A stretch of 64,000 bases of DNA from Kiritimatiellia bacterium (GTDB lineage Bacteria > Verrucomicrobiota > Kiritimatiellia > CAIVKH01), in the NCBI GenBank assembly GCA_025054615.1, contig JANWZO010000001.1:143499-207498 (forward strand), given 5' to 3'. Made by a program: the position numbers and the translations under genes. The notes below the pieces were generated by a model. That model saw only the letters and a program-made list of their open reading frames with translations. It searched no databases and was not told the DNA's origin. This document shows, one piece after another, positions 21,719 through 46,480 of the stretch. Every line of letters begins with the position of its first letter. Position 1 is the first letter of the stretch.

Positions 21719-21725
21719 AGTTGGC

Positions 21726-24414: not shown

Positions 24415-27400
24415 CTACGGATTGAAGTTCTTGCCGGGTATCGAATAGTAGAGCCGATTGGTCCAGTACATCATACCCGGATTGCGACGGATGATGATGA
24501 CGACGTCGTCCGGCCGGATTCTGAAGTTGGCCACCGTTGGCGGCGATGAGAATTCATTCGTATTGTACGCAGCGAGATTCCACGTTGTCCCGTCCGACCT
24601 GAGATGCCATCGGACCCGCGGATGCGTCAGCGATGCGATGCCATTGCTGACGCTCAATATTCGGATTTCATCCGCGAAGGCCACAAAGTTGTGGCCCACC
24701 ATACCGGATCCGCGGAACAACGCGCCCGTGAGGCTTACATGGATTGGATAATTCCAGTTCAACACGTGGAATAGATTGCTGCCGCTACCCGATGCCCCTT
24801 GAATGGCGATGACCTGTTGTTGCGTCATCACGCGGCCTACGATCGGCAGGTGGATCGTCGGCGATCCAACCGGCAATTCGATCATAAAGCCCTGATGAGT
24901 CGGGAAGACCATGTCATTAGCCACCGCACCCCAATCGCCTGTCCAACGCAACCAGGTGCCACCGCTGCTGCCGCCGTACAACCCGACGGTATTGGTCACG
25001 AAGTTGTAGGATCCGGTGCCTCGTTGCGGGCTGAACCAATGGATCTTGGTCGCCGTCGCGTAGGTTGTGCCGGCCGGCACACGGTTGGTTCCGAAGACAT
25101 AGGCAACCGTTGCCGTATCGGGTACGAAGAACGTGCCATACCAGTTTTCGCCGGGCACCAGGCGGATGGGCTTCGTCACGTACACCTCCCGGCTCCCGCG
25201 GCGCAACGCGTTGGTCGGTTGCCAAGCGTCTTGAAGCGAGACGCGATAGAACCGCATCGTGGCGCCGAGCTCCTCCGGCGGGACGCGGTAATGGTTGGTC
25301 GGGCTGAAGCCGCCTTCATCAATGAGCATGTTGCCGCCGGCTACATTATTGGTAATTCGATCGAGCCATTTCCACGCGTTGCTGAGCGAGTCACTGAAGT
25401 TCAGGGCATCGACGAACAATTCGTCGTACACCCGATTTGTGGAAGCAATCCAAGCCAGGCGCACCCCATTTGTGCCCGGGCTGAACACTCTGGAGATGCC
25501 CTGCGTGACCTGGAAGTTCACGGTCAGGCCGGTCACGACCACTTCAGGGCTGAGGTTCCCAGCCGCATCGCGGGCTCGGATGCGCACGCGATGAAGGGCA
25601 TCGAAGTTCAAATTCGAAATGATGATCGAAGAGGTATTGTTGGAACCAAGGTTCGGGATTTGCGCCTTGGTGATCACCGTGGTGCTGATGGGATTGAATG
25701 AACCATCAAGTTCATGAACGGTGATGATGTACGTGTCCCACGGTGAAAGCGGCGTATTATCGGAGGTCCGCCATCCGGCCGCGATGTGGCTGTTCGTGTG
25801 GCCGGGCGTCCACTGGACTTTGATTTCCGTAGTCTCGTCGACCAGCGGATCATCGGTCACATTGGTCGCATTGGCCACCGGGAGCGGAGGATTGGTGTCG
25901 ATCCGCAAACGGAAGGCGACCACGCTGCCCATCGCCCGATCCTGTGAGGAAGCAGACGGACGATCGAGATCGTTATCAATCGCGAAGATAAAGCCTGTGA
26001 TGGTGCCCTGCTGATGCAGCAAGCTGACCACCTGGCTGGTCTGGTTGCCTGGCACGTTGAAGCCGTGGTTGGTGGCCGTTGGCGGGGTTGTGCCTATCGC
26101 GGGCGCGACGATGCGATACTCATCAATGCCATGATAATCATCCGTGGCGTGATCCCAACGAATCGTGACCGATGTGAGGTTCGTCCATCCCAAGGAATTG
26201 GTATCAGCAAGGAATCCACTTTGGAGGACGATGAAATTGTCGATATAGATCCCAGGCGAGCCATCCGTGCCTACGCGCACCAAGCGCAGCGTAGTGATGC
26301 CCGGCCAATCAATATTCCATACCTCTGACTGATAATCCGCAGAGTCAACCTCATTTGTGCCGGCGCTGGCCCAATTCGTCCCATCCCAGAACAGGAGTTC
26401 GAGGTGACGAACCGCGCCGGTACTGGACAGCCGGGCATCCACCATAACCTTGCCCACATCGGTTCGCGCCGGTGTTTGCAGGTACTGGCCGACCCCTGTC
26501 GCTGCGAAGCCACCTTTCCGGACTCCGCCAGCCGCATCCCCAAGATTTACATAGGTGGTGCCGAACCAAACACCTGTACCCAGACCATTGGTCACGACAT
26601 TTGTCCAGAGCGTACCCGAGGCAAGAAATGCGGGCCATCCCTCAGAGGTCTCAAAGGATGTGAACAAAACCGCCTCGTCGCTGAAAGAATTGTCGACCTG
26701 GAGGCTCGTCATGGACGGGCCTTTCACGTCGTCGTCATAAACCCGGATCCAGCCGTAGGACAGCGCGGCGTTGATGCTCACATCGTTGGTGCGGTCATTG
26801 TCCGAATCCTGCAGATTCACACGGACCAGGCTTCGTTTGGCCATCGTGAACAACGTGTTGTTGATAAGCTGATTAATCTGCGACTCGGTGAAGAATCCGT
26901 TCGTGAACGAGAAGATGTTGGTCTGAACGACACCCGGCGCGTTGTTGGAGGTGGAGAGCGAGGCGTTCCAACCAATGATGGTATTGGTCACGATCGGCGT
27001 AGTGAGCCGGATTTCGAAATTGATCCCGTCATTGGTGCCACCAGAGGTTGCACGGCGGATTCCCGAGCCGAGATCCATGGCCCCGAAGGCGAATTGTAGG
27101 CCTTTAGAGCCGCTGAGGGCGAGCTCTTCATCCGTCACGGCAAATGTGGAATTCGTACTGGTTCCCTCGCGCCGCGGATAGGTCCCGCGAATTTCCGTAT
27201 CTCCGCTGCCCAGCGGGAAGAGATTGGTGAGTATGAAGAATGGGCGGGCGACAGAGCCGGTGTAGATAATGTCCGCCATCAGCGGACCGTCCGTATCATC
27301 GTCGATCAGGCGGATGTATCCGGCCAACAGATTCGACGCAATCATTTGGTCATTCACTCGATCTGCATCGTTGTCCGGCATGGTCACAGTGACGGCAAGA

Positions 27401-30400
27401 TCCTGCCCTTGCGCCCCGGAGCCGTCACCGCCCCACATATCGGAGACGCGCTGCCACGTGAACAGCGAGGCGGCAAACGACCACGTGCTGGTGGCATTAG
27501 CGTTGGTCCCGATCGCGGAGCTCCAGGAGGCTTCATAATCCGCGAAGTTGTTGGTTGCGACGAAGGGGATCGAGAGGGTTGCGTTGGTTGAGGCTGGACC
27601 ATGGGGCGAGCGCTGCAACCCGCTGTGCTGATCGTAAATATTAACCATCACGCGCATTCCGGCGCCAGTCAGCACGCCGTCTTCAATGAAATACCGGTCA
27701 AGCGAACCAACGGTTTGAGCCGGCGCAATCAAGGAATTCGTGAATACCCTCAACGGTTTGGCCCCAAGGAGCGGCGCGTTCGTGTCGTCGTCATACGCAT
27801 AAAATTGCAACGGCCAGTTGATCGTCATTGCGCGATTGGTCGGCACCACCGCCCACGAGGGGCCCAGGGCCGCGGGCACCGTGGGAGCGCCGGCCGGTGC
27901 ATTTTCGCCGGAAACCGTAACGAAATAATTCACGGTGAAATCGAGGTTGGTGACGTTGAATGCAGCTTTGTGGAAGGTGGTCACCGACGCAAAGCCGTTG
28001 TAGCCGATATACCCCTCGAAAACTTTGTCGAGATTGAATGGATTGGTGGCAGCTCCGATGGCAAGCGGATCCCAGTTCGGATTCACGCGGGCCTGGTGCG
28101 AACCGATATTGAGGTTGGTGGCGACTGTGTTGGTTAGGAACAATCCTCCGAGGCGGGCCTCCCACCGAACCGCAAAATCGATCAGATTTGTGGAGGCGAG
28201 CTCCGCATCGCTCAGATTGGTGACCACCAAGTTATAAACAGAGGGTCCGTAGTTCGTGCCGATATAGACCAGCGCCGGCAGGGGACCATAATCGTCATGC
28301 CATCCCTGAGGCACTCCCCACGTGGTCTCTTCCCAGCTCGGCGTGATCCGGATGCTGTCGAAGGTAACAATCTGGTTGTTGTCACTGGCCACCAGTTGGA
28401 TGCCGTCAATTTTCTCAATTACGACATTCGTCATTTCGACGATCCACGCCGCCTCCTTTTCGGGCACGGCGTGCATGAGCTGATTGGTCGTATACGCGCG
28501 AGCTTTGAGCGTATCCTGCTCGAAGTCGTATTCTAAGACGATCAGGTAGTCGACTCCCGCGTTGATTTCGTATCCCGGATTGGTTCCATCCAGCCGGTTG
28601 GTGCGAATTTGCGACCCATACTGGATCGATAGCCGCCGCTGTTCGACGCCGTAGGCTTTGCCAACGAAGGCCGTAACGGCGCTTCCGTTGAGCAGATTCA
28701 CGCCCAGGTAGTTGGTGCCAACGAGCGTGTGGTTGTTATTGATCTTGAAGCCCATGACAAACTTGCCGCTGGTGAAGGGCGCAAAATTCCGGCGGGCGGC
28801 GCGCTGGCCGGAGGTGTCTTCTGATGTATTGCCAAGATCGATAAAGCCGCTGCGCGTCGGGGCCGGGTAATCCGGCGGATAATTGCCGAATTGCGGGAAG
28901 TTGCCAGGTCCGGTCTCCACCAGCCCGCCAGTCGTGATCCATGCATTTGTCCAGCCAGTGCCTCCGCTCAATCCGGACAGATTGACGAAGGATCCATAGT
29001 CAAACCCCTCGTAGATGATGCCTTGCGCGAGCGTAGCGACGCTCCGCGGGTTGTTGCTGGCGGTCACAGTGAGATAGTCAATCCCGCTGCCTGCACCGTT
29101 GTATTCAAACACCCGGAAATGCCAAGTGACGCCGGGCGCGAGCCCCACTACCTCCACGCATGTAGCCGTGCCGACGGAGACCACGAAATTGCCGTCGCCC
29201 AGGTGGGATCCTGACCCGAAATTCGTACTGGCCGTGTACGACGTTCCATCCACTGGGAACTGATTGACCGCATTCGTGCCGCGCACGACAACCACACGGC
29301 CCTGACCGTTACCCGGCGAGAAGCACAACTCAACCCGACTTGTTCCCACCGATTGGAATACAATGTTGCTGGCTTGGAGAGTCGGCTGCGCACACAGCGT
29401 CTCCGCGGATGCGGTAACCACGGTAGACGTGAAGTAGTTGTAGGTCTGAGGGGCGGATCCGTTCCAACGGAACGAGAAGATGCGGAAATGATAGAGTGTG
29501 CAGGTGAGCAAATTCGTGTGAAGGGCATTGCTCACGGTGCCCGGCGTAGCGATAAAGGCAGTAAAGCCGCCGACAAGTTGGCCGTTGGTATACCCCACTC
29601 CATCCTGCGGCAGCGCCGTCACCGGATTCGTGCCATAGAGCAGCAGATATCCGCTCGGGGCCGGCGTTCCGGATGCAATCGTCCACGTATTGCTAATTGA
29701 ATAGGGCGAATCCGGATAGGCCATGAGGTTCGTCGCATTCCCGAACGGCTCAAGGGAAAGGGTCCATTGCTGGCCGGTGGCGAAGCCGGGCGCCGTGTAG
29801 TAGTTCGGAGACGGCGTTCCACCCATGTTGTATTCGAAGACCGCAAAGTGATACAGCGTCTCCGGATTTAGTCCGGTCACGTGCACGTTCGTGCCGATGC
29901 CGTTGTAAATGATGCGGTTGCCACCGAAATCGGGCGCGTTGGTGAAATTCGCGCTGGATGCGTAGGAAACGCCATCGGTGGGAACAAAGGTCACCGGCGC
30001 ACTTTCGCGGGCGACCACGATTCGATACGCGCCATTCCCCGGAATCCATCCGGCCGTCATTGACGTGGTCGACACGTTGTAGAAGTGCATGCCTGACGCA
30101 TGGACGTTCGGCTCATTGGTGAACTGATTGAGGAGTCCCGGCCAGGACGAGGCCACGCGGATTTCGTCAAAGCAGAAGTTCCCTTCATCCTTGGCCGCGA
30201 CGCGTATGCCGTTGATCATGCCAATAGCCACCGTCGGCGTGCCCGTGACGTACCAATTCGGCTCGGTCAGCGGAAGGGCGCCGCCATACAGCGCAAATCC
30301 GTAGAAGCGGTTCGAATTGAAGTCGTACATTCCCACGTAGAAATATCCAGGGTCGCCAACGCCATTGACGCCAAAGCTGCTGAGCTTCATGCCGCCATTC

Positions 30401-33400
30401 GGCCCAAGATCGATTCCAAAGTTCGCGTTGTTGAAGACCTTCCCGGCGAACGCGACCTCGGCAGCATTGCTCATGAAGGAAATGCCATTGAACCCGTCGG
30501 CATTGCCGTCGGTCTTCCGAACCGCTACCGCCATGAAGATCTTGCCCGTCGTAAACGGATTGAAATACCGGAAGGCTTGGAGCTCGGTTCCGGCCGTATT
30601 GCCGCAGGCCTTGTTGCCGGCCGCGGCCGGATAGTTGGTGGGCACGTAAAGGTTGCCCGGATCGATGCTGAAGCCAACGTCCGGATTGTTGTTCCAGGCG
30701 TTCGTCCAGCCGGTGCCACCAATCATATTTTCCAGCGAGCCGGAACTGTTGGTGAATTGATCGACAATCTCGCCGGGCTGGTAGCCGAACACGCGCAAGG
30801 CCACAATATTGGTCCGCGTACCATTCGTCTGGTTGCCCACAAATAGCACGCGAGCCGTGTAGACGCCTGGCGCGAGCATGGACGGATCAACGGTATAGGT
30901 GTGCGACGTGACTGCGCCGTTGCCCAGCAGGATGATGTTTGAGGCAGGCGACACGGTCAGCCAGCCTGACGGCCCCACGAAAACGGTTTGTAGGCTGTAA
31001 ATCAACGCGCCGTTCCCAACATTTGTCGCAAATGTGTTGGGCCAAGGACTCGGTGCCGTGATTACGCCAAAGGTGGACGTGACCGAATGAATCGCCGGCG
31101 CAATCGCGAGCCCGGCCAGATTGGGCCCGACAATGACCGTGAACGGAATATCATTGGTCGCCACCAACTGGTCATGAATACCCCAGTCATTGTCGTTGTC
31201 GGCCACAACGACGCGAGCAGTCCAGATGCCCGTATCGTTGGTGGTCACCGATGGGATCGCCACCGCGCCGTTTGATACCGTTCCGTCGGTGAATACCAAC
31301 GCCCCGCCGTCCGTGAATTGCAGGAAATCAAATACTTTCGTCAGCCGTACGGTGCCGGTCGGGTCAATAAGCTGGAAGTAAGGCGAATTGTTCGGGGTAT
31401 TCGTGCTCGTGCCGTTCACATTGACGCCGCTTTCCACATCCCGCACGCGACCCGTAATCCACCAGCCGAAACCGTATTGAAGCTCATCGACGCGGACGGT
31501 ATTCACGCCGGTCACGCCGCGGATGCCAAAGAAGGAAAACTCCGGAGGCGTGGTGTCGTCGTCGCGGACGACCAGCAAACCGTGTTGTTGACCCGGATGG
31601 GATAGCTGGTCGCCGGGTCGGTCGTCATCGGCGTCGCGCCAGGTCAACACGACCGGATTCGTCCCCAGACCAAAAGCCGTGTTATTCACCAGCGCCGACA
31701 CCACGGACGCACTGAACGCATTCGTAAAGGTCCACGCGTTGGTGGAGGCCGTTGTGGTGTTTGTGAAATGGGTGCTCAAGACCGGATCCCAGTTGGCTGT
31801 GTTGCTGACTATTGCCGACCCGATAGAGAGATGGCTGTGGTACAGCGGGTCCGCTCCGACACCGCGGCTCAACCCGGAACCGGCGTCACTCGCCCCGAAG
31901 AAGAAGGTCAACGGCGAAGTCGGCGCAATCACATTCGCCAGGTAATGGTCAAAAAGAATGTACGTGATATTCGTTCCGCTGGAGCCCCCGACCGAGCCAA
32001 CAGCGTTGTTGTTGGAGCTGACGTGCATGAAATGCGATGCCGAGCTGTGAGGGGACTGAATGGTGTTCGCCACCGGCGGATTCGTGTCATCATCAAAAAC
32101 CACAAACGTTTGCACCGTGCCATTCGACAATGTCACGTGATTGTACCGCCACACTCCGTTCGAGGTGGCTGCGCTCCACCTCATGGTGTACACCCCAAGG
32201 ACGACGTCATTATAGGCGACGGCCGGCTGGACATGGTTGGACGATTGCAGCGACCGGCCGGCATCCGAATACAGGAAATTCGTGAAGGGCTGATCGTTGA
32301 TGACTATCGTGCCGAGCGGATTGAGGAAGTCATAGTCCGGATTGGTCGCGCTATTCGTCATGCCAAACAGACTGTAAAGCCAGAGTTGGACAGGATATGA
32401 ACCCGTGCGTAGCGCTGCGTCGGTGATTCCATTCGTCGCCCCAACGAGGTAATTCGTGGCATGCGGTGGACGGAGGTTGAAGAGGTCTTCGTAGGTCGGG
32501 GCAATTCTGACCTCGTCAAAATAGACATGGCCGACGCCGGATGGATTTGTCGCGCCGGAAATCAGGCGAATGCCGTCGATGTAGGTAGGTGCGTGGACCG
32601 CCGGAACTATATAGGTTGCGTCCCAAGTGATCGGTTCGCCGGTGGGGATGGAAGAGGATTGGTAGACCCCGATAACAGAAAGCTCTCGCGTGGCGAAATC
32701 GTACCGGCCCAGGACTGCATGGGTGTTGTTGGTGCCAGTGGACACGTAATAAGCAGATGATGCGCCTGCATAACCGGCCTGAATGCTCTCCACGCGGAGA
32801 TTTGTCGTCCCGCCACCCTTACCGACAAACAGATAGGGAGTGTTACCCTGCGCCAAATGAACGCCTGCAAAGTTAAGAAGATTATTGCTCTGCATCTGGA
32901 GCAGGAAGGCCACGTAGATGCGCCCTGTACTCGTGGCTGGGAATGGGCGATATAATTCGGCGACCTCCCCAACGCCCGGGTCAAATACCCAGAGCTTATT
33001 CGCTCCGTTGGTTGGATAGTTCAACGGCGCCGGGAGGCTTTGCGAGTGCCCAAGGAAATTATTGGTGCTCGTGATCGCGAACCAGTTGCCGGTGAATCCA
33101 ATACCCCGATGCTGCGCCACATAATTAATAAGGACGCTGTTCGTGTACGGGAACGGGTCGACAATCACCGAATCCACGTACGGCGGCGTATTTGTCGAGG
33201 CGGCCGTCGGCGTCGAGTAGTAGTTATTGTTGACCGCATAGATGCGGTAATGGTGCGTGGCGTTTGTCCGGACTGCGTGCTCAAGGCTCTGCAGTGTTCC
33301 GGTGTAGATCACCGTCCCGCCGCCGATCGTTGAACCGATCGAATACGACGTGCCGTTGACCGGGTCGGCCGTGGGCGCGCTGTCTTGGCGGTACACCAGC

Positions 33401-36400
33401 AAAACGGGCAGGGCCGAGCTCCACGCCAACCGGATAAATTCCGGTCCATCGGGGATCGCCGAGAGAAAAGAGGGAGGAGGTATGTTGCTGACTGTTATCG
33501 TCACCGGCACGCTAATCGGGCCGTTTGTCGCATTGCCCGAAATGACATTTGTGGCGACGAAGGTCCCCGCGTTGGTCAGGGATCCGCCCTGAAGAACAAC
33601 GTTGATGGTCGTTTGATCACACGCCGGATTCGTGCCCGCCCCAGGCGCAATCGCCAACCAATTCTGGAGACCCGCTCCATAGTTCGTGCTAATCGACCAG
33701 ATCAAATTGGTGAAACCCGTATTGATAATCGTAAGTTGCTGGGTAATCGACACATTGTCGCCCAGCATCGCAGAAAACGACATGGAGGTCGGACTGACCG
33801 CGATAGCAGGCGCTCCGGTGAACGCCCACAATTGGCACCAATTCCGAGCCACGCGGATTTCATCGAACCACGCGTTGCTTTGCACGCCGCCGCTGTAGGC
33901 GCCCACGGAGAATGCGAAACCGTCGATGAATGACGGCGCATACGCCGCGGGGACGATGTAGTTGGTGCTCCAGAGCGCGGGCTCAGTGAAGGGGATCGTC
34001 CCTGTCCGATAGATGCCGAGAATCGCCATCTCGCGGGTCTCAAAGTTATAGCGGCCGACCACGGTGTGAATATCGTTTGTGCCTGTCGTCACGAAATAGG
34101 TCGATATGCTTCCGCTGTGTGTGATGCTTTCCTGCACACCCAGATGCGAGGAGCCGCCAGGTACGCCATAGTAGAGAATCCGATTGGTACCGGACATTAG
34201 GTGCACGCCCGCATAACGCAACGATCCGACCGTTTGAAGGCGGAACGTGTACGCAAGGTAGATCCGCCCTGTGCTAAACGTGTACCCGAATGGGCGTGAG
34301 CGGATAGCCGTTCCATTGGTGCCGGGGGCGGGAAGGAACAGAGAATTGCCGCGGCCGCCGGGATGATTGGTGGGGTAGGCCAACGTGACATTCGTGATGT
34401 GGTAGGCGCCAGCCAGAGAACTGGTGGACGACCACGCGCCGCCCCAGCCCGTGCCGCCGTTGAGCAAGCCCAGCGGAACGCCGTTCGTGTAGCTGAACTG
34501 GTCGATGATCAGCACGTCGAAGCCCGGCGTATTTGTCGACGCGGAGACTGCCGTTGAATAGAAGTTGTTCGAACTGACCGAGTAAAGGGCGTAGAAGTTG
34601 GTGGACAGCGCGGGCACCACGTGCTCCAGGGACGTCGCCGGGCCTTTGTAAATGACCAGGGAGGATCCGCCGATCGTGTCGCCCGGATTATACGCTGTTC
34701 CCTGAACAGGTGCCGCCGGCGCAGCCCCGTTGCGGTAGACGAGCATCACGTTGAAATTCGAATGGTTATTCCAGTTGAGGCGCACCATCTGCGGCCCATC
34801 GGCTACAGCGGTGAGATTCGAAGGCGGGGCGGGATAGACATTGAGCGTAATCACAACATCAACCGGACCGTTCGTCGCATGACCGGCAATCCGATTCGTT
34901 GCGACAAAAGTCCCAACATTCGTCACGCTCGCCATGTTGAGGGAGGCGGTTACTACCTGAGCGCTCGATGTGTACACCACCATCGAGGTGTGGCTCAGCG
35001 ACACCCACCCGCTCAATCCATTCCCGTAAGAAAGCGTGTTCGTCGCGAACAAGTTCGCTCGGCCAATGTTCGTCACAACAAAGGTCGATGCCGTGGGTGA
35101 TCCGCCCCAGACCACGTTCCACACAATCGACGTGGGCGCGACCCCGATCCCGCCAAATCCCCAAAGCTGATCCCAACTGGGCGCGTAGAAAATTTCGTCT
35201 ACTGCCGTATTGCTGACAGAAACCCCTCCGATGCCCTCCAGGTAGATCTGCAACTGGTCAATATCCACGGGCGCATTTGCGACGGGATTCGTGAATGTTG
35301 CATGCCAAGTAGCCGGTTCAGACAGCGGTATCGTGTCTGTCCAGTGGTAGGCATAGAGTGACGCTACACGCGACGTAATGTTGTACCGGCCCACCACGGT
35401 ATACACATCGCCAGTGCCCGTACCTGTGGATACCGAAGACGTCACTCCCGCCCATGTCTGCTCTGCGAAAATCCCAAATTGGTACGTCCCGGGAGCAACA
35501 CCGAAGAAAACACCTCGCCCAAGATAGAAATCCCGGATGGTCATGCCGACGCGGCGATTTGGGCCAAAGGACTCGGTTCGGAACGTGTAGGCGAGATACA
35601 CGGTTCCCGTGTTGAAAATGTAGTCGGCTTCGATATTGCGCGTCCATATTGCATTCGTGGTGCTGTCGGGCAGCAGGCGGAACATGTTCGCCGCCGGCCC
35701 AGGGTGCCGTGTCGGAACCGGAAGGGACCCGTTCGTTACAACCCAAGTACTCAGGTTCCAAGCGCCGTTCCAACCAGTGCCCCCGTTCAGTCCTGCTAGG
35801 TACGTCATGCCATTCGTGTAACTGGCCTGCTCGACAACGGGGGAGCGGAACGGCGGCGTTACGGCCGAGACGAGGACTCCTGTGGAGTAAAACGCGCCAT
35901 TCGCCGAGTAAATGGCGTAGTAATTCAAGCTTGCCGCATTGACCACGTGCTCGAGCGAGGTCGCCGCTCCGCGGAAGGCTACAAAAGAGCCGGGGACGAT
36001 TTCATCGCCAGCGGAATAGTAGACGCCCTGTGCCGGAGCTGCTGGCGGGGCATTATAGCGATGGACCACCATCACCTCGAGACCGGGGTGATTCGACCAC
36101 GCCAACCGCACCATCTGCGGGCCATCCGGGGTGGCGGATGCGCTCGCCACAGGTGGCAGGTTTGACACATTCAAGGTATAGACGACGCGGATCGGGCTGT
36201 TCTCCGCATTCGCGGAGACCGTATTTGTCGCGATGAACGTGCCCGTATTCGTGACGCCAGCTGCCACGACAGCTCCGGTAAACACGCGGGTTTGAGCCGC
36301 GCCCACCGCGGCCGTAACCGGGCTAATCGACAGCCATCCACTGAGGCCCGCACCGTACGAGACGGTGTTAGTTACGTGCAGCGTTGCATAACCCAGATTT

Positions 36401-39400
36401 GTGACCACAAATATTCCTGACGTCGCCGTACCGCCTATAAAGGTGTTGATCACGATCGACGTCGGCCCAACCCCCATCGTCATCCGCTCCCACAGTTGAC
36501 CCCAGCTCTGCGCAACGCGGATTTCGTCGAGCCATGTATTCCCCAAAGACAGGCCTCCAAATCCGCCCATGTTGATTGACAATCCATCAATGCTTCCCGG
36601 TGCATTGGCCGCCGGGACGGTGTATGACGCATCCCACGTCGCTGGTTCGATCGCCGGAATTGTCGTCGTCTTGAAATACCCCAGAATATTCATCTCCCGC
36701 GTCGCAAAGTCATACCGACCGACCACTGTGTAAATGTCGCCCGTCCCCGTATTGATCACGTAGGAGGAATTTTGCCCGCCAAACGAAACGCTTTCCTCCA
36801 CCCCCAGAACCGTTTGCCCGCCCCGCAATCCGTAGTACAACCGCCCTGCTCCGTTCGACGTCAATTGCAGCCCAAGGTACCGGCCCGTGCCCACCGCCCC
36901 AGCTCGGAACGTATACGCCAGATAAAGTCGGCCTGTGCTATAGGCCGCTCCAAACGGTCGGTTCCTCGTCACATCCACATTGGCCGCCGGCGCCGGCACA
37001 TATAACGCATTCGCCGCCGCCCCAGGATGCCCGCTCGGCACCTCCAGACTCCCGTTCGTCACAATCCACGATCCCCCGCCACTACCCCACGCTCCACCCC
37101 ACCCAACACCGCCGTTCAATCCGGTCAGGCTCACCCCGTTCGTGTAGCTGGCCTGGTCTGTGATCAACACCTGAAACACCGGCGTCGTCGCCCCAGCGCT
37201 CACCCCAGGCGAGTAATAGTTGTTATTGATCGAATAAAACGCGTAGAAATTCGTCGACCCCGCCGGAACCACGTGCTCCAACGCCGATCCCGCCCCCTTG
37301 TAGATCACCAGCGAACTGCCTCCGATCGTGTCCCCAGCATTGTAGGATGTCCCCTGCGCAGGCGCTGCCGGCGCCGCCCCATTCCGGTACACGATCAACA
37401 CGTCAAAACTCGGGTGCTTCGTCCAGCTCAACCGCACCATCTGCGGCCCGTCCGCCACCGCAGACTGCGCCGAGGGATTCGGAATGTTCGTGATCGTCCA
37501 CGTCACGGAAATCGTCTGGGGACTGTTCGTCGTAAACGAATCGCCCGTGACGGTGATCGTCGCATTCGATACGCCGGCTTGAAGGCCGGCTATCAGTTGC
37601 ACGTGAACGGTGTGAATATTGCCGGCGCCCGGCGCCGCCGTGTTCGCCGTGTTGCTCACCGACAACCAACTGGCATTTGTCGCAAATGAGTAGGTTAGAG
37701 TCTCCAGACCGATGTTCGACACGCTAAACGACTGGAAAGAAGGAGACGGCAGTGACCCGAGCATCGAGGTAAATGCGATCGTGCCCGGATGGTTGGAAAT
37801 GCCGCTCCCCGCGCCCGTTCCCTGTATCGCGAAATTGTACGGATTCTTGCCCGTCGACGAACTGTTGGTGAACAAAACCTCCGCTGTGCGCAAGCCAATA
37901 GCCGACGGATCAAACTGCACCTGGAAGGTGGCCGTTGCGCCCGCAGCGATTTGCGTGGGAGGCTGGGTGACGACCGTAAAATCGGACGCGTGAGTCCCGA
38001 CAATCACCACATTGCTGATGGCGAGGGGACGATTTCCGGTGTTGGTGATGGTAAAGGTTCGGGTGAGGGTCGCACCCGACACACCAACGAGACCGAAATC
38101 GGTGTGATCCGCAGTGGACGGCGTCGAATCTCCGTCTGCAATGACCTGCCCATTACCCAGCACATCCAGGTTGTACGTGACTCCCGTGCCCGCGATCCGG
38201 AATGTGTAAGGTGATTTGCCGGCTACGGTGTTGGTGAACGTCAGATCCGTCCACCGCTCGCCGTCGGCGCTTGGGTCGAATTCAATCGTGATGTTCGTCG
38301 ATCCGCCCGCTGGCAGAGTCGCTGGCGGCTGATTGATGACCGTAAAGTCGGACGAATGCCCGCCAGAGAAACTAATTCCCCCTAGACCGATCGCCGCAGT
38401 ACCCGAATTCGTGATGGTAAAGACCCGCTGAAATGTGCCGCCATCCGTAACGACGTCGCCAAAGAGCGTGTGATCCGCAAACGACGGCGTGGTATCGCCG
38501 TTCACAATGAGGGTGTTGTTGCCGTAAACCTCCACATCGCCCGCCAGTCCTCCGCTCGTGAAGACAAGAAACAAGTTGCCGCCGCTGTTGGTCACCGAAA
38601 AAGCGCCCCCTCCCAAGGACGGCGAAAATCCGGTCGTGTTGACAACAAATCGGTTGGTTGCAAAACCACTAATCGATCCCGCATTTACGATGCGCCATGA
38701 GTAATTCGTGGAGCTGTCCCAACCCGTCGGGTTCCCATGAAGATAAATCACGAAGGGGTTGTCGACCGTTGAGTTAACCGTGACCGATCCGCTTCCACTC
38801 CCAACAACAATCTGATCCCACTCCGTACCCGGAGTGCCCGACACATTCGAAATATCAACTCGCATTCCGCCATTGGTTTGCAACGTAAGGTTGCCTGAAT
38901 TCAAATTGGCCCGGTCCCCTATGGTATTTCCCGGATCAACAAGACCGAAAACAGTCAAGGCGCCCACCGTCCCCGTTCCCCGCAATGTTCCGACTCCCAT
39001 GATCGTGTGCGCCGAGTTTGCCGATGAACCGCGAACGACCAGGACGCCATTGCTGATCGTGGTCGACCCACTGTAGGTATTGATGCTGTGCACGGTCGCC
39101 GTCCCAGTGCCGTCCTTGATCAACGGATTTGCGCCGATGTTCAGCGGCGTATTCCACTCTACTTCGCCCGCCCCGGCGAGGGTCAATCCAAACGCCGAAG
39201 TAATTGCAGTGCTGTTGGAAACATGGAGCCTTCCGGCATCTGAGCTGATCCTCGTCGCCGATGAGAAGAAGATGCGGCCCGTCAACGTATTGTCGCCGCT
39301 GATATTTCGCAGGGCGCCGCCGCTGTTAATGCCCGCCCCCGCCAAATAGATCCGCTCTCCCAGCGTAAAACCTCCGGCCACTTCCAGCGCCGCTTCCATC

Positions 39401-41595
39401 CCCGTTCCGGGCCAGACAAACGTCGCTTGGTTGTCGCTGTCGTTGGTATTGCCCAGGCTCATCGGCCCAAGTGCGCGGACCACACCCTGCGTGATGTACA
39501 GGCGCCCGGCAAATGTGTTCACACTCTCCATCACGAACCGACCGGGGCCCGACTTAATCAGAACGTTAGCGGCCGCCCCCGCAAAAATTTCGGCTGAGTT
39601 GGTCAGATTGACATTCGCAGTAATTTCAATTCCCGCCTCGGTGTTTTCAGTAAGACGAATCGATTTGGGAAGCACCGTATCGGTGGCGCCTGTGTAGCGC
39701 AGGGTGCCCCGCGCCGTGGAAGGAAACACCGAAGAACCCATTCGAATGCCCGGCGATGTCGTGCGAGAACCCAGAGGTTGAGCGGCGGAGGCTGAACTGT
39801 CGATGTAATTTACCGAAACAACGCCGCCCTGGATGTCAAGCTGGCCGGTAAAGGTGTTGTTGCCGGCCAGTATTAATGTGCCCGCGCCGTTTTTGATAAA
39901 ATTCTCAGTTGAACTGGACGAAACTACTCCACTCAGCGTCAACTCCGTTCCGCTATCGACCCCGATCGCAGACGTGATCTGGTTCGTGATATTTCCGGAG
40001 AGTGTGTTGTTGCCGCTGATGTTTCGAATCACCCCGTTGCTGCCCACGCCAAAGCCCCGCGTAATCAGCGGCTCCGGCGAATTGATATTCCCCGTCACCT
40101 CCAATGTCGCCCCCGTTCGCACATCGGTTGAGGCTGCCGTCGTGCCCAGCGCGTTGTTGTGAGAAATTCGCAACACACCGCCGCTGACGACAATCGACCC
40201 GGATAGCGCATTGTTGTTCGTAAGCGTCAGACGGCCGTCTCCCCATTTGCGAAGCGTCTGCGATCCACCCATGACGCCGGAAACCAAAAGCTCGCCGCCG
40301 CCAGCGACTTCATACGTAATCTCACGATCGAGAGTATTCGACCCACTTAGCGTGATCGTACCGCTGGTATTCGCGGCCAACAGATTCCGATTTCCAGAGC
40401 TGCTGCGCGACCGGATCTGATTGGTGACCACCAGACCCGCATCCTGCAGAATCAACATGGCATTGCTGGTACCAGAAGCCGGGCCTATATCTATGACGCC
40501 GCGCACGTGCGCAACCGTGCCGGTTAACCGCACGGTTCCCTCATCGATGTACAAGCCGGTAATATCGTTAGACGCGCCGATCCGCAATTCGCCCAATCCA
40601 GCTTTCACCAGCCCGTTGCCTGCATCGTTGGTCATGCGGCCCTCGATGTTGGCCGTATGACCGGCTGGCACCGTGATAAGCCGCTGGGCGCTATTGAAAT
40701 TGACCGGCCCGCGAAACCGGAGGGTGCCGCCCGCGCCGTTTGAGAATGTAACCGAATTCGCCAGAAGCATTTCCCCTTCAAACGTCGCCATCCCGCTAGA
40801 GAGATTTGCGATGGTCCTATTCCCAGTACCCGATCGAACATGCAACCGGTTCGACACCACCACGCCGGATGTGCCCACCTCAAGACGCGCCGGCACGGAG
40901 CCCCCATCTGCACCGACAAAAATGGTATTAGTGTGGTCGAGACCTGTCGTAACATTGTAGCGCAACGCGCCCGCCAAAATCGCCATCGTGCCGCGGTTGG
41001 TCACCGACTCCGTGATCACAACGGTTGAATTTTGCTGGATGGCGACGGTTCCCGTGCTGCCGCCCAAATTTCGGATCGTCAGCGCTCGCCCGTTAGTGCC
41101 CCACACGTTGACATTAAACCCCTGTAAATCGAGACGGATGAGCTCGAGATCACCAGTGACCGGATTGACCTCGAAGTTGTTAAAACCGGCTTGAATCGGA
41201 AACAGAAGGGCGTGGGACGAAGTGGAATTATTCTCGATCTTCGGCACATTCCCGCCAAAGTCATAAAAAATGTTGACCGTCGTGCCTGTTGCGATTCGCG
41301 CGGATGTCGCGAGAGAATCAAAAAAGATTCGGTAACGAGCCGTCGCAGTCAGATTATTGGTCGTAATCAGCTTATGATTATTGTCAAAGCGAATAATTTC
41401 ACTACCGGTTGGTGCTTCGGTATACCCTCGCCACCAGTTATTATCGACCTGCCAATTGTTACCATCCGCGGGACCTGAATCTCCGCGCCAATAGTAGGTA
41501 ACCTGACCAAAGACGACCTGCCCCGCTACCATCCATGCACATAAACTTAAAAGTGCGCTTATTGCGCGCAGGCGTATCGCACGGCATGCCCTCAT
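24415..41595 (-). CDS. Giant secreted surface protein (~5727 aa) with a PATR beta-helix region and tandem FN3/LamG-like/Ig modules
   Basis: Single uninterrupted 17.2-kb ORF. ATG at 41595 is preceded by GAGGG 7 nt upstream. Signal peptide MRACRAIRLRAISALLSLCAWMVAGQVVFGQ. The N-terminal ~900 aa is rich in G-x-L/T-x-L/I-x-G-x-N-T-x-T/S-G repeats, the PATR type. The downstream architecture is repetitive and modular (see repeat features). Confidence 0.85.
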   Translation of the reverse strand: MRACRAIRLRAISALLSLCAWMVAGQVVFGQVTYYWRGDSGPADGNNWQVDNNWWRGYTEAPTGSEIIRFDNNHKLITTNNLTATARYRIFFDSLATSARIATGTTVNIFYDFGGNVPKIENNSTSSHALLFPIQAGFNNFEVNPVTGDLELIRLDLQGFNVNVWGTNGRALTIRNLGGSTGTVAIQQNSTVVITESVTNRGTMAILAGALRYNVTTGLDHTNTIFVGADGGSVPARLEVGTSGVVVSNRLHVRSGTGNRTIANLSSGMATFEGEMLLANSVTFSNGAGGTLRFRGPVNFNSAQRLITVPAGHTANIEGRMTNDAGNGLVKAGLGELRIGASNDITGLYIDEGTVRLTGTVAHVRGVIDIGPASGTSNAMLILQDAGLVVTNQIRSRSSSGNRNLLAANTSGTITLSGSNTLDREITYEVAGGGELLVSGVMGGSQTLRKWGDGRLTLTNNNALSGSIVVSGGVLRISHNNALGTTAASTDVRTGATLEVTGNINSPEPLITRGFGVGSNGVIRNISGNNTLSGNITNQITSAIGVDSGTELTLSGVVSSSSTENFIKNGAGTLILAGNNTFTGQLDIQGGVVSVNYIDSSASAAQPLGSRTTSPGIRMGSSVFPSTARGTLRYTGATDTVLPKSIRLTENTEAGIEITANVNLTNSAEIFAGAAANVLIKSGPGRFVMESVNTFAGRLYITQGVVRALGPMSLGNTNDSDNQATFVWPGTGMEAALEVAGGFTLGERIYLAGAGINSGGALRNISGDNTLTGRIFFSSATRISSDAGRLHVSNSTAITSAFGLTLAGAGEVEWNTPLNIGANPLIKDGTGTATVHSINTYSGSTTISNGVLVVRGSSANSAHTIMGVGTLRGTGTVGALTVFGLVDPGNTIGDRANLNSGNLTLQTNGGMRVDISNVSGTPGTEWDQIVVGSGSGSVTVNSTVDNPFVIYLHGNPTGWDSSTNYSWRIVNAGSISGFATNRFVVNTTGFSPSLGGGAFSVTNSGGNLFLVFTSGGLAGDVEVYGNNTLIVNGDTTPSFADHTLFGDVVTDGGTFQRVFTITNSGTAAIGLGGISFSGGHSSDFTVINQPPATLPAGGSTNITIEFDPSADGERWTDLTFTNTVAGKSPYTFRIAGTGVTYNLDVLGNGQVIADGDSTPSTADHTDFGLVGVSGATLTRTFTITNTGNRPLAISNVVIVGTHASDFTVVTQPPTQIAAGATATFQVQFDPSAIGLRTAEVLFTNSSSTGKNPYNFAIQGTGAGSGISNHPGTIAFTSMLGSLPSPSFQSFSVSNIGLETLTYSFATNASWLSVSNTANTAAPGAGNIHTVHVQLIAGLQAGVSNATITVTGDSFTTNSPQTISVTWTITNIPNPSAQSAVADGPQMVRLSWTKHPSFDVLIVYRNGAAPAAPAQGTSYNAGDTIGGSSLVIYKGAGSALEHVVPAGSTNFYAFYSINNNYYSPGVSAGATTPVFQVLITDQASYTNGVSLTGLNGGVGWGGAWGSGGGSWIVTNGSLEVPSGHPGAAANALYVPAPAANVDVTRNRPFGAAYSTGRLYLAYTFRAGAVGTGRYLGLQLTSNGAGRLYYGLRGGQTVLGVEESVSFGGQNSSYVINTGTGDIYTVVGRYDFATREMNILGYFKTTTIPAIEPATWDASYTVPAANAPGSIDGLSINMGGFGGLSLGNTWLDEIRVAQSWGQLWERMTMGVGPTSIVINTFIGGTATSGIFVVTNLGYATLHVTNTVSYGAGLSGWLSISPVTAAVGAAQTRVFTGAVVAAGVTNTGTFIATNTVSANAENSPIRVVYTLNVSNLPPVASASATPDGPQMVRLAWSNHPGLEVMVVHRYNAPPAAPAQGVYYSAGDEIVPGSFVAFRGAATSLEHVVNAASLNYYAIYSANGAFYSTGVLVSAVTPPFRSPVVEQASYTNGMTYLAGLNGGTGWNGAWNLSTWVVTNGSLPVPTRHPGPAANMFRLLPDSTTNAIWTRNIEADYIFNTGTVYLAYTFRTESFGPNRRVGMTIRDFYLGRGVFFGVAPGTYQFGIFAEQTWAGVTSSVSTGTGTGDVYTVVGRYNITSRVASLYAYHWTDTIPLSEPATWHATFTNPVANAPVDIDQLQIYLEGIGGVSVSNTAVDEIFYAPSWDQLWGFGGIGVAPTSIVWNVVWGGSPTASTFVVTNIGRANLFATNTLSYGNGLSGWVSLSHTSMVVYTSSAQVVTASLNMASVTNVGTFVATNRIAGHATNGPVDVVITLNVYPAPPSNLTAVADGPQMVRLNWNNHSNFNVMLVYRNGAAPAAPVQGTAYNPGDTIGGSSLVIYKGPATSLEHVVPALSTNFYALYSVSSNNFYSTAVSASTNTPGFDVLIIDQFSYTNGVPLGLLNGGTGWGGAWSSTSSLAGAYHITNVTLAYPTNHPGGRGNSLFLPAPGTNGTAIRSRPFGYTFSTGRIYLAYTFRLQTVGSLRYAGVHLMSGTNRILYYGVPGGSSHLGVQESITHSGSISTYFVTTGTNDIHTVVGRYNFETREMAILGIYRTGTIPFTEPALWSTNYIVPAAYAPSFIDGFAFSVGAYSGGVQSNAWFDEIRVARNWCQLWAFTGAPAIAVSPTSMSFSAMLGDNVSITQQLTIINTGFTNLIWSISTNYGAGLQNWLAIAPGAGTNPACDQTTINVVLQGGSLTNAGTFVATNVISGNATNGPISVPVTITVSNIPPPSFLSAIPDGPEFIRLAWSSALPVLLVYRQDSAPTADPVNGTSYSIGSTIGGGTVIYTGTLQSLEHAVRTNATHHYRIYAVNNNYYSTPTAASTNTPPYVDSVIVDPFPYTNSVLINYVAQHRGIGFTGNWFAITSTNNFLGHSQSLPAPLNYPTNGANKLWVFDPGVGEVAELYRPFPATSTGRIYVAFLLQMQSNNLLNFAGVHLAQGNTPYLFVGKGGGTTNLRVESIQAGYAGASSAYYVSTGTNNTHAVLGRYDFATRELSVIGVYQSSSIPTGEPITWDATYIVPAVHAPTYIDGIRLISGATNPSGVGHVYFDEVRIAPTYEDLFNLRPPHATNYLVGATNGITDAALRTGSYPVQLWLYSLFGMTNSATNPDYDFLNPLGTIVINDQPFTNFLYSDAGRSLQSSNHVQPAVAYNDVVLGVYTMRWSAATSNGVWRYNHVTLSNGTVQTFVVFDDDTNPPVANTIQSPHSSASHFMHVSSNNNAVGSVGGSSGTNITYILFDHYLANVIAPTSPLTFFFGASDAGSGLSRGVGADPLYHSHLSIGSAIVSNTANWDPVLSTHFTNTTTASTNAWTFTNAFSASVVSALVNNTAFGLGTNPVVLTWRDADDDRPGDQLSHPGQQHGLLVVRDDDTTPPEFSFFGIRGVTGVNTVRVDELQYGFGWWITGRVRDVESGVNVNGTSTNTPNNSPYFQLIDPTGTVRLTKVFDFLQFTDGGALVFTDGTVSNGAVAIPSVTTNDTGIWTARVVVADNDNDWGIHDQLVATNDIPFTVIVGPNLAGLAIAPAIHSVTSTFGVITAPSPWPNTFATNVGNGALIYSLQTVFVGPSGWLTVSPASNIILLGNGAVTSHTYTVDPSMLAPGVYTARVLFVGNQTNGTRTNIVALRVFGYQPGEIVDQFTNSSGSLENMIGGTGWTNAWNNNPDVGFSIDPGNLYVPTNYPAAAGNKACGNTAGTELQAFRYFNPFTTGKIFMAVAVRKTDGNADGFNGISFMSNAAEVAFAGKVFNNANFGIDLGPNGGMKLSSFGVNGVGDPGYFYVGMYDFNSNRFYGFALYGGALPLTEPNWYVTGTPTVAIGMINGIRVAAKDEGNFCFDEIRVASSWPGLLNQFTNEPNVHASGMHFYNVSTTSMTAGWIPGNGAYRIVVARESAPVTFVPTDGVSYASSANFTNAPDFGGNRIIYNGIGTNVHVTGLNPETLYHFAVFEYNMGGTPSPNYYTAPGFATGQQWTLSLEPFGNATNLMAYPDSPYSISNTWTIASGTPAPSGYLLLYGTNPVTALPQDGVGYTNGQLVGGFTAFIATPGTVSNALHTNLLTCTLYHFRIFSFRWNGSAPQTYNYFTSTVVTASAETLCAQPTLQASNIVFQSVGTSRVELCFSPGNGQGRVVVVRGTNAVNQFPVDGTSYTASTNFGSGSHLGDGNFVVSVGTATCVEVVGLAPGVTWHFRVFEYNGAGSGIDYLTVTASNNPRSVATLAQGIIYEGFDYGSFVNLSGLSGGTGWTNAWITTGGLVETGPGNFPQFGNYPPDYPAPTRSGFIDLGNTSEDTSGQRAARRNFAPFTSGKFVMGFKINNNHTLVGTNYLGVNLLNGSAVTAFVGKAYGVEQRRLSIQYGSQIRTNRLDGTNPGYEINAGVDYLIVLEYDFEQDTLKARAYTTNQLMHAVPEKEAAWIVEMTNVVIEKIDGIQLVASDNNQIVTFDSIRITPSWEETTWGVPQGWHDDYGPLPALVYIGTNYGPSVYNLVVTNLSDAELASTNLIDFAVRWEARLGGLFLTNTVATNLNIGSHQARVNPNWDPLAIGAATNPFNLDKVFEGYIGYNGFASVTTFHKAAFNVTNLDFTVNYFVTVSGENAPAGAPTVPAALGPSWAVVPTNRAMTINWPLQFYAYDDDTNAPLLGAKPLRVFTNSLIAPAQTVGSLDRYFIEDGVLTGAGMRVMVNIYDQHSGLQRSPHGPASTNATLSIPFVATNNFADYEASWSSAIGTNANATSTWSFAASLFTWQRVSDMWGGDGSGAQGQDLAVTVTMPDNDADRVNDQMIASNLLAGYIRLIDDDTDGPLMADIIYTGSVARPFFILTNLFPLGSGDTEIRGTYPRREGTSTNSTFAVTDEELALSGSKGLQFAFGAMDLGSGIRRATSGGTNDGINFEIRLTTPIVTNTIIGWNASLSTSNNAPGVVQTNIFSFTNGFFTESQINQLINNTLFTMAKRSLVRVNLQDSDNDRTNDVSINAALSYGWIRVYDDDVKGPSMTSLQVDNSFSDEAVLFTSFETSEGWPAFLASGTLWTNVVTNGLGTGVWFGTTYVNLGDAAGGVRKGGFAATGVGQYLQTPARTDVGKVMVDARLSSTGAVRHLELLFWDGTNWASAGTNEVDSADYQSEVWNIDWPGITTLRLVRVGTDGSPGIYIDNFIVLQSGFLADTNSLGWTNLTSVTIRWDHATDDYHGIDEYRIVAPAIGTTPPTATNHGFNVPGNQTSQVVSLLHQQGTITGFIFAIDNDLDRPSASSQDRAMGSVVAFRLRIDTNPPLPVANATNVTDDPLVDETTEIKVQWTPGHTNSHIAAGWRTSDNTPLSPWDTYIITVHELDGSFNPISTTVITKAQIPNLGSNNTSSIIISNLNFDALHRVRIRARDAAGNLSPEVVVTGLTVNFQVTQGISRVFSPGTNGVRLAWIASTNRVYDELFVDALNFSDSLSNAWKWLDRITNNVAGGNMLIDEGGFSPTNHYRVPPEELGATMRFYRVSLQDAWQPTNALRRGSREVYVTKPIRLVPGENWYGTFFVPDTATVAYVFGTNRVPAGTTYATATKIHWFSPQRGTGSYNFVTNTVGLYGGSSGGTWLRWTGDWGAVANDMVFPTHQGFMIELPVGSPTIHLPIVGRVMTQQQVIAIQGASGSGSNLFHVLNWNYPIHVSLTGALFRGSGMVGHNFVAFADEIRILSVSNGIASLTHPRVRWHLRSDGTTWNLAAYNTNEFSSPPTVANFRIRPDDVVIIIRRNPGMMYWTNRLYYSIPGKNFNP
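28329..30771 (-). repeat. Two additional diverged LamG/ConA-like domain copies plus FN3 pairs in the C-terminal half of the giant protein
   Basis: aa 3623-3840 (EIVDQFTNSSGSLENMIGGTGWTNAW...FDEIRVASSWPGL) and aa 4207-4437 (IIYEGFDYGSFVNLSGLSGGTGWTNAW...FDSIRITPSW). FN3-like domains at aa ~3850-3950 and ~4090-4190 (..YHFAVFEYN.. and ..WHFRVFEYN..). Confidence 0.6.
32472..37485 (-). repeat. Four tandem ~1.33-kb intragenic repeats, each encoding a ~442-aa module (FN3-like, LamG/ConA-like, Ig-like)
   Basis: Module starts at aa ~1385, 1827, 2268 and 2717 (nt ~37485, 36159, 34836, 33489). The modules share blocks such as ADGPQMVRL(S/A/N)W, YRNGAAPAAPxQGT.YN.GDTIGGSSLVIYKG, TGR(L/I)YLAYTFR, TVVGRY(D/N)F.TREM.ILG and DEIRVA..W.QLW. 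Confidence 0.85.
38640..41340 (-). repeat. PATR-like beta-strand repeat region (protein-level repeats; aa ~100-1000 of the giant protein)
   Basis: Recurrent units such as GAGTLILAGNNTFTGQLDIQGG, GDGRLTLTNNNALSGSIVVSGGVLRI and GGALRNISGDNTLTGRIFF. Confidence 0.6.
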
Positions 41596-42054
41596 CACAA
41601 AACCCTCGTTTAGCGCTTTACGATCCGCTTCCAACAAGCCCTGCCCATCAAGAATCTGTTAGAGAAATAACACAAAAATATTTGGACTGTAAACACCGTA
41701 CATCCATTTTCTATCGCATGGAAGGAGCCGGGGGGCGGTTCGCATTGGGTGCATTTATGAATTTGTCCAGCCCAACGGACCGTGCAGATCGCTGCAAGGA
41801 GGAACTACCAGCCGGAACCCGCCTCTTGGCCGGAGAGACCGACCGTCCTACGGATTCAGCCACCTTTTCGACAGATTCTGAAAATTCCAAGCGATGGAAC
41901 GGAGCGGACGGCAACTTTACAGACGATGGAAACATTCCCGTCCGGTACGAGCCGCTGCCCGCCACCGGTTACGATGGACTGCTGCACCTCTTCCTTTTAC
42001 CGGCCGGAACAGCGAGCCGTCAGGCTCTGGCACGGAAGGGCGAACCCCACCCGC

Positions 42055-45849: not shown

Positions 45850-45865
45850 GAGTTGGCAACGGGCC

Positions 45866-46459: not shown

Positions 46460-46480
46460 AGGGGCTCCTCGCAAAGTGAC

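Follow-up and report, generated by a model that had tools for sequence, protein, structure and literature searches.

The window analysed here is a stretch of 64,000 nucleotides from the genome of an uncultured Kiritimatiellia bacterium. Its most conspicuous element is a giant gene on the minus strand (24415..41595) whose product, a protein of 5,726 amino acids (aa), carries an N-terminal signal peptide. No known export or anchoring signal was detected in this protein. Its last ~370 aa turned out to be a conserved, lineage-specific domain with a tail that ends in proline, and the same domain closes hundreds of large surface-type proteins whose passengers differ. With moderate confidence, and judging from sequence, we propose that the product is a Sec-exported adhesin of the cell surface or the extracellular matrix, and that the C-terminal domain may be its missing sorting or anchoring module.

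The route that we envisage begins with an intact gene of a diderm bacterium of the Planctomycetes-Verrucomicrobia-Chlamydiae (PVC) group, from which a non-enzymatic, beta-rich modular fibre of ~600 kDa would be made. The signal peptide would direct the protein through Sec to the periplasm. A conserved component of the envelope would recognise the C-terminal domain, leading either to passage across the outer membrane or to non-covalent retention on it. The domain would thus act like the C-terminal domain (CTD) of type IX secretion system (T9SS) cargo or like an anchor of the SLH type, being kin to neither. Once outside, the fibre might bind polysaccharide, particles or other cells.

Known export signals and the C-terminal domain

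An earlier note on this DNA, made by reading the sequence, had described the protein as devoid of any recognizable anchor, and this description held in every search. A C-terminal 12-stranded beta-barrel (PF03797/TIGR01414) was found neither with permissive hidden Markov model (HMM) searches nor with a fold search of the C-terminus. Regarding PEP-CTERM, PF07589 gave no match, the signal peptide is the sole hydrophobic segment, and 'PEP' occurs as a tripeptide just once, at aa 507. Motif scans of the giant protein returned zero LPxT[GAS] sortase motifs and zero GGxGxD motifs of the RTX type associated with type I secretion (T1SS). The Por_Secre_tail CTD of T9SS (PF18962/TIGR04183) had no HMM match at E<=5 and no fold match, and the Haemagg_act domain of two-partner secretion (TPS) had no Pfam match in aa 1-3000. 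As for a TpsB partner, the window has Omp85 genes of the BamA-like and TamA-like types, neither of which adjoins the giant gene. No other C-terminal sorting model of Pfam or NCBIfam was matched at permissive thresholds.

Could the protein nonetheless be a substrate of a known pathway (autotransporter, TPS, T1SS RTX, T9SS, PEP-CTERM/exosortase or sortase) whose signal was overlooked? The autotransporter-associated beta-strand repeat (PATR) that makes up its N-terminal region is typical of autotransporter passengers according to the TIGR02601 description, and an exosortase gene lies ~5 kb from the giant gene. Against these two indications stand the uniformly negative results for barrel, TPS, RTX, Por_Secre_tail, PEP-CTERM and LPXTG in permissive HMM searches and in motif and hydropathy scans. 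We consider an overlooked signal highly improbable, and known pathways are effectively excluded.

The C-terminal unit spans aa 5361-5726 (24418..25515; all features of the giant gene are on the minus strand). It consists of a ~90-aa beta-sandwich ending in ...MRFYRVS, followed by an all-beta core that comprises the last 290 aa (24418..25287). The protein ends, as had been noted, in ...YYSIPGKNFNP, of which YSIPGKNFNP-COOH (24418..24447) is the terminal tail. The earlier note had drawn attention to an uncharacterized C-terminal domain of ~360 aa; a conserved unit of about that size is indeed present, but it is not a one-off end. An exhaustive profile search with the C-terminal domain against 1.84 billion cluster representatives (clusters at 50% identity) returned 320 clusters at E<=1e-3, with 260 at E<=1e-10 and 176 at E<=1e-30. 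When the last 366 aa served as query in a word-indexed search, 9 relatives were retrieved, all of which end in ...PGKN[FIV]NP; a similar search with the C-terminal profile retrieved 9 proteins, and an alignment-based scan of contigs found 5 close loci. The family HMM matches the open reading frame (ORF) of the window with E 4.6e-98, from position 3 to position 313 of 313, and the match ends at the last residue. The labelled relatives are all assigned to Kiritimatiellia/Kiritimatiellae or to 'Verrucomicrobiota'; NCBI taxonomy places the class in Kiritimatiellota, within the PVC group.

Position and tail were scored among the 151 family representatives listed of the 320. In 137 of these 151 the domain extends into the last residues of its protein, whereas in ten it is internal or truncated. 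Proline is the last residue in 130/151, and the motif Y-x-x-P-[TGN]-[KR]-x-[MFI]-x-P-COOH, of which the tail of the giant protein is an instance, is found in 126/151. Among apparently full-length family members the median length is 2,602 aa, and the longest protein has 7,648 aa. Conservation is concentrated at the end: when the giant protein was compared with 150 relatives, the most widely shared segment was aa 5401-5550 (matched by 144), while the middle modules were matched by 30-50 and the N-terminal 1,200 aa by 5-35.

The passengers are varied. Among 83 full-length members, 32 combine PATR with a ~250-aa beta module that is also present in the giant protein, 11 have the module only, 4 have PATR only and 36 have neither. 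In those of the last class that were sampled, SdrD_B, DUF11, SpaA, Gly_rich_2 or CBM96 domains are present, and the NCBI names of family members include 'SdrD B-like' and 'phospholipase D-like'. The C-terminal domain is found on at least three passenger architectures. Related genomes have several paralogues each, often in tandem.

Two or three giant genes placed head to tail were seen in L008/L009 (1-9641, 10001-21547 and 21764-27601), in L005 (71-10876, and another from 11050), in L014 (1084-14763, and another from 15059) and in L010. At least two of the L008/L009 giant genes end in the C-terminal domain; the window holds a single copy.

Structure prediction of the C-terminal domain yielded a confident all-beta model made of short strands that do not form a barrel. 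A fold search of the Protein Data Bank (PDB) with this model found no barrel and no other solved relative, save for faint echoes of galectins, CBM6, CUB, discoidin and jelly rolls. A PDB sequence search gave nothing significant, no model of the domain exists in Pfam or NCBIfam, and no description of the domain or of the protein family was found in the literature. A preprint on giant genes of Omnitrophota deals with architectures that are unrelated to the giant protein.

A terminal position, a conserved end, varied passengers and many paralogues are hallmarks of the T9SS CTD and of PEP-CTERM and SLH domains. The case for a sorting or anchoring role of the C-terminal domain rests on the same kind of evidence: its place at the terminus, the conservation of the last residues, its promiscuity with regard to passengers, the presence of paralogues in single genomes, and a conservation that exceeds that of the passenger. 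In the light of such a family, the absence of a known anchor more likely means that the anchor or sorting domain is still undescribed.

Several observations weigh against this proposal. A minority of family members (P0099, P0100, P0104, P0113, P0123, P0129, P0134 and P0136) have the domain in an internal position, followed by 300-1,000 additional residues and without the tail that terminates in proline. All the passengers of the family are adhesin-like, so that the terminal place of the domain could be inherited from the common ancestor of one adhesin superfamily. In the predicted model the conserved tail packs on the folded domain (last block with a predicted local distance difference test score, pLDDT, of 88), and it may be structural rather than a free signal. 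The many conserved tryptophans and tyrosines of the domain (W22, W49, W84, W112, Y14 and Y281) fit a lectin-like head equally well. The window contains no secretion or anchoring machinery linked to the giant gene, whose 5' neighbour is clpB and whose 3' neighbour is a convergent gene of an exopolysaccharide (EPS) block, and no flanking genes common to the window and the related loci were found. Lastly, the localisation of family members is a prediction.

Some of these features lead to the main rival explanation, namely that the C-terminal domain is a distal ligand-binding head, similar to a lectin or a carbohydrate-binding module, and that the protein is retained on the cell by other means, if at all. 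Besides the conserved aromatic residues and the tail folded into the predicted model, the faint echoes of galectins, CBM6, CUB, discoidin and jelly rolls speak for such a head, and so does the precedent of RTX adhesins, whose ligand-binding domains sit near the C-terminus. Yet the ligand-binding tips of adhesins are usually their most variable part, while here, across passenger types, conservation is much higher in the C-terminal domain than in the remainder of the protein, and no alternative anchor is found in the giant protein. A binding head is thus, in our opinion, an unlikely but serious alternative to a sorting or anchoring module.

Gene and domain architecture

The giant ORF opens at 41637 (TTG) or at 41595 (ATG) and its stop codon occupies 24415-24417. 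Read from the ATG, the complete coding sequence has 5,726 codons plus the stop, and the mature protein would have ~602 kDa and a pI of 5.4. Lysine is scarce (0.8%, versus 3.9% arginine), as is cysteine (0.2%, with 8 residues in the mature protein), and glycine, threonine, asparagine and serine together make up ~38%. No enzymatic domain was found with Pfam or NCBIfam.

The single reading frame of 17.2 kb might be suspected of being an assembly artefact or a decaying pseudogene, because the source is a metagenome-assembled genome (MAG) and internal repeats can be mis-assembled. At the base composition of the window, a run of 5,740 stop-free codons has a chance of ~1e-81, and the GC content at third codon positions (GC3) is 0.63-0.74 in each block of 500 codons, which indicates that the frame is coding over its whole length. 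From Met22 onwards the protein is identical to P0010, that is, to MCS6770545.1/MDW8457627.1, two NCBI records from a 212,670-bp contig of a Kiritimatiellae/Kiritimatiellia MAG. Intact related ORFs of 2,000-7,600 aa occur in many assemblies, dozens of them collinear with the giant protein and of similar length, and its internal repeats are just 35-61% identical at the protein level in self-BLAST, too diverged for assembly collapse. Related intact ORFs and diverged repeats make an artefact, a frameshift or a pseudogene very unlikely; no break of the frame was found, and we treat this explanation as effectively excluded, with a probability close to nil. The uninterrupted frame proposed in the earlier note is consequently confirmed. 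The protein is already deposited, automatically annotated ('choice-of-anchor D domain-containing protein [Kiritimatiellae bacterium]') and uncharacterised.

The deposited record starts at Met22 (41532-41595 region), and this start, assigned by the NCBI annotation pipeline PGAP, is probably wrong in view of the sequence. It loses the signal peptide and is not preceded by a Shine-Dalgarno sequence. The ATG at 41595 is preferable: a Shine-Dalgarno-like GAGGG (41603..41607), read from the sequence, lies 7 nt upstream, and a Sec-type signal peptide is restored. The latter would comprise aa 1-31 (MRACRAIRLRAISALLSLCAWMVAGQVVFGQ; 41503..41595), with a putative cleavage site at its end, a basic n-region and a hydrophobic 19-mer. 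In a hydropathy scan (Kyte-Doolittle value above 1.9), this 19-mer, with a value of 1.92, is the one strongly hydrophobic segment of the whole protein. The signal peptide noticed earlier is therefore a typical one. No consensus stands out as a promoter or terminator of the giant gene.

The signal peptide is followed by a PATR beta-helix of ~1,000 aa (aa ~32-1015; 38551..41502), supported by PF12951 (2.2e-27) and TIGR02601 (4.4e-23). Self-comparison reveals internal repeats over aa 225-960, and a local HMM resolves four units. Next come two Ig-like domains of the choice-of-anchor D/HYDIN type (aa 1016-1262; 37810..38550), matched in two stretches by NF012200 with 1.2e-37 and 128.7 bits, against a curated cut-off of 45; DUF1573 and HYDIN_VesB_CFA65-like_Ig match the same region at about 6e-14. 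The PATR helix and the Ig-like domains of the earlier note are thus both borne out.

Four tandem modules of ~443 aa (aa 1264-3045; 32461..37806) follow. Each is made of an Ig-like part, an FN3-like part and a beta module of ~250 aa, and self-BLAST gives 35-61% identity between them. The FN3-like part aligns with the protein's true FN3 cluster with an hhalign probability of 93% (E 2.4e-7). Matches of the Ig-like part are weak, be it to BACON_2 (E~0.06), to Cep192_D6 (E 0.005) or to choice-of-anchor D (hhalign 11%). Thereafter the ~250-aa module recurs twice. Two domains of ~170-190 aa that end in DDD[TV]xxP (aa 3046-3545; 30961..32460; motifs at aa 3168 and 3345), similar to the aa 4742-5062 region, precede a fifth copy (aa 3545-3835; 30091..30963). 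Three mutually similar FN3 domains (aa 3826-4172; 29080..30120) come next, with a Pfam match to fn3 (PF00041) at aa 3834-3930 of 3.8e-10 and 40.3 bits (gathering cut-off 25), and then a sixth copy (aa 4125-4430; 28306..29223). Both extra copies were identified by alignment and by a local HMM. Three more domains terminated by DDD..P, with motifs at aa 4602, 4765 and 4954 and with internal repeats, fill aa 4431-5062 (26410..28305). An unassigned beta-rich domain plus an FN3 (aa 5063-5360; 25516..26409) leads to the C-terminal unit; Pfam fn3 matches at about aa 5267-5351 with 7.7e-06 and 26.5 bits (cut-off 25), and the region is common to 59-112 of the 150 other family representatives. The FN3 domains announced in the earlier note are confirmed by these two Pfam matches.

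For the five DDD..P domains (nt ~26700-32100) no family match was found in Pfam or NCBIfam. D-x-D-x-D-R-x-x-D motifs occur in them ~20 aa before the terminal DDD motif. As far as can be read from the sequence, their acidic DDD[TV]xxP ends are probably calcium-binding junctions between domains.

The ~250-aa beta module deserves separate consideration. The earlier note had described four tandem FN3/LamG/Ig modules and two further LamG-like copies. The four ~443-aa repeats, their FN3-like part and the two additional copies withstood analysis, with self-comparison and the local HMM detecting six copies of the beta module in total, but the LamG label did not. None of 20 module copies, taken from the window and from four related loci, matched Laminin_G_3 in Pfam at E<=10, and single tandem modules matched neither Laminin_G_3 nor any ConA-like family at E<=5. 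When the module profile was compared with a bona fide Laminin_G_3 protein of a related locus, the hhalign probability was 0.35%. A profile search of PDB sequences gave nothing significant, the best hit being the jelly-roll protein CIP1 (E 0.07). At the level of HMMs and profiles, membership in the Laminin_G_3/LamG family is thus not supported, and neither is the lectin-like assignment.

What the module profile does match, with E values from 5.5e-17 to 2.7e-4, are stand-alone proteins of 275-310 aa composed of a signal peptide, the module domain and a PEP-CTERM tail. The tail is made of VPEP, a transmembrane helix and an arginine cluster (RRR), and two of these proteins have a precomputed PF07589 match. 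Motifs common to them and to the module of the giant protein include YEGFDY..G..L.G.NGG.GW..W ... DEIRVG. The ~250-aa module is therefore a homologue of the domain that small PEP-CTERM proteins, which are exosortase substrates, carry as passenger, and it constitutes a family without a Pfam model. In the small ~280-aa PEP-CTERM proteins P0168-P0180, nearly the whole length corresponds to the module, and several tails are degenerate (VPEA, VPEC). A relationship between the module and the C-terminal domain was also considered and rejected (hhalign 0.1%).

Genomic neighbourhood and a candidate partner

The giant gene follows clpB on the same strand after a distance of 460 bp and is convergent with an EPS block that contains an epimerase gene, an exosortase gene (18526-19515), EpsI (19485-20309), a sugar transferase gene and a gene for an 898-aa protein of the TIGR03790 family. 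The exosortase system that the earlier note had placed nearby does adjoin the giant gene. The TIGR03790 gene (21450-24146, plus strand; 78 bits against a cut-off of 67, with no Pfam domain) closes the block, at 270 bp from the stop codon of the giant gene and convergent with it. Its ORF overlaps that of the sugar transferase by ~270 nt, which suggests that the true start is probably located further downstream.

An adhesin role of the giant protein is suggested by the homology of its module to PEP-CTERM passengers, by the adjoining EPS/exosortase locus and by the adhesin-type set of domains. The same neighbourhood admits a second rival explanation: the protein might be released into the EPS matrix, for instance by type II secretion, and serve there as an unanchored scaffold of flocs or biofilms whose six modules and C-terminal domain bind the EPS that the neighbouring locus produces. 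Adjacency to the exosortase/EpsI/sugar-transferase/PEP-CTERM locus, the presence of a GGDEF protein in the window, and the sharing of the module with small PEP-CTERM proteins, a class tied to EPS and flocculation in TIGRFAM/NCBIfam descriptions (e.g., PepA, NF033554), are consistent with such a scaffold. Nevertheless, the giant gene lies outside the EPS operon and in convergent orientation, related loci do not share its neighbourhood, no type II secretion genes are found in the window, and the window's own PEP-CTERM protein, of 275 aa, is unrelated to the module. We rank the unanchored scaffold second, behind the binding head, and consider it improbable.

The related loci offer a possible partner for the C-terminal domain. 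In four unrelated metagenomic loci, six genes for secreted proteins of ~290-310 aa lie directly upstream of a cargo gene and in the same orientation (L010, 5795-6685 and 19258-20142; L011, 6514-7383 and, on the minus strand, 651-1583; L012, 5019-5921; L013, 648-1508). Their products share a conserved N-terminal domain of ~150 aa, followed by TSP3-type calcium-binding repeats and a beta-sandwich that ends in FxRV, and are 30-46% identical to one another. The neighbouring cargo carries the C-terminal domain in all four cases in which the 3' end of its gene is visible. A neighbour of this type is absent upstream of the giant gene of the window, of the second L008 gene and at L014. The only match to the family in the window involves the TSP3 repeats of an OmpA-like protein (beta-barrel, TSP3 repeats and OmpA domain; 56535-57926, minus strand). 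Outside these loci, the TSP3-type proteins weakly resemble the Amuc_1099 pilus-like family, CglD and MtsD, below cut-offs and apparently via the TSP3 region. A metagenome scan with their alignment seeded on generic TSP3 repeats and returned essentially unrelated loci, besides a single additional true partner, located on a 1.4-kb contig.

From their position and sequence, these TSP3-type proteins may be partners or chaperones of the cargo. More speculatively, a Kiritimatiellia-specific, as yet undescribed pathway of outer-membrane export or attachment may use the ~370-aa unit as its recognition domain, with a function comparable to that of the T9SS CTD or PEP-CTERM systems, and in a portion of the family the secreted ~300-aa TSP3 protein may take part in it; put in such specific terms, the proposal is tentative and more doubtful than the general idea of a sorting or anchoring module.

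The window belongs to the core chromosome of a diderm, the diderm markers being BamA, Skp, LpxD, TamA/TamB, OmpA and an LpxL-like acyltransferase. Two clusters for outer-membrane biogenesis, both on the minus strand, flank the region, namely TamB-TamA (2366-6816) and LpxD-Skp-BamA (44812-48832). TamAB assists some autotransporter-type proteins in other bacteria; here both clusters are housekeeping, with no link to the giant protein shown. ClpB, LpxD, Skp, BamA, DnaB, L9, SSB, Pth, L25, Prs and the GGDEF protein are encoded on the side of the giant gene opposite to the EPS block, and the window also encodes an L,D-transpeptidase, SLT, PgpA, PyrD/K, a TPR protein, the 275-aa PEP-CTERM protein, the OmpA protein with TSP3 repeats, the LpxL-like acyltransferase and Nqr subunits. 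Two ORFs had no Pfam or NCBIfam match, one of 313 aa just upstream of the exosortase gene (17575-18516, plus strand) and another of 533 aa (8901-10502, minus strand).

Significance and comparison with known systems

Marine and gut habitats harbour Kiritimatiellia as important degraders of sulfated polysaccharides, and hundreds of large surface-type proteins of this class carry the C-terminal domain. The finding bears on how bacteria of the PVC group export and hold their many giant PATR proteins that lack a barrel. The window offers a clean, intact example, and a domain with a recognisable tail motif provides a concrete handle. If the domain is indeed a sorting or anchoring signal, a new protein-sorting system would be at hand and the surface proteome of the phylum would become predictable genome-wide; should it prove to be a binding head, a new lectin-like fold would be defined. 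The kinship of the module with PEP-CTERM proteins ties giant proteins to exosortase-associated matrix biology.

Comparison with known systems can be summarized as follows. The giant protein has the PATR passenger of a classical autotransporter (type Va secretion) and lacks the C-terminal barrel. It is closer to the barrel-less PATR proteins of the PVC group, with which it shares a signal peptide, a long PATR beta-helix and beta-sandwich spacers, and its close relatives are named 'autotransporter-associated beta strand repeat-containing protein' by NCBI; it differs from them in ending, with neither barrel nor PEP-CTERM, in a conserved unit of ~370 aa that lies outside Pfam and NCBIfam.

The cargo of T9SS in Bacteroidota offers a parallel for the C-terminal domain, as it also has a folded beta domain at the extreme end of varied large surface proteins, several per genome. 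In contrast with that cargo, the domain described here has no kinship in sequence or fold to the T9SS CTD, is three to four times larger (290-370 versus ~80-100 aa) and belongs to another phylum; no T9SS genes were seen, and its role in sorting is a proposal of ours. The module resembles Laminin_G_3/ConA-like lectins in its ~250 aa, its richness in beta structure and a C-terminal DEIRV strand motif, but sequence comparison reveals no HMM or profile relationship. Small PEP-CTERM proteins of ~280 aa, whose passenger is homologous to the module that occurs in six copies in the giant protein, differ in that the latter lacks a PEP-CTERM tail and embeds the module, together with Ig-like and FN3-like domains, in tandem repeats.

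Surface proteins that are giant, modular and rich in beta structure are already known as a kind. The RTX giant adhesins LapA, SiiE and MpIBP resemble the giant protein in its size of ~600 kDa, its repetitive beta-sandwich stalk, its acidic linkers that probably bind calcium and its non-enzymatic nature; the giant protein, unlike them, has no RTX repeats, no T1SS signal and no recognised N-terminal retention module, and bears a Sec signal peptide instead. What is new here is the C-terminal domain family, with its tail motif and a fold without solved relative, together with the re-assignment of the module formerly labelled as LamG.

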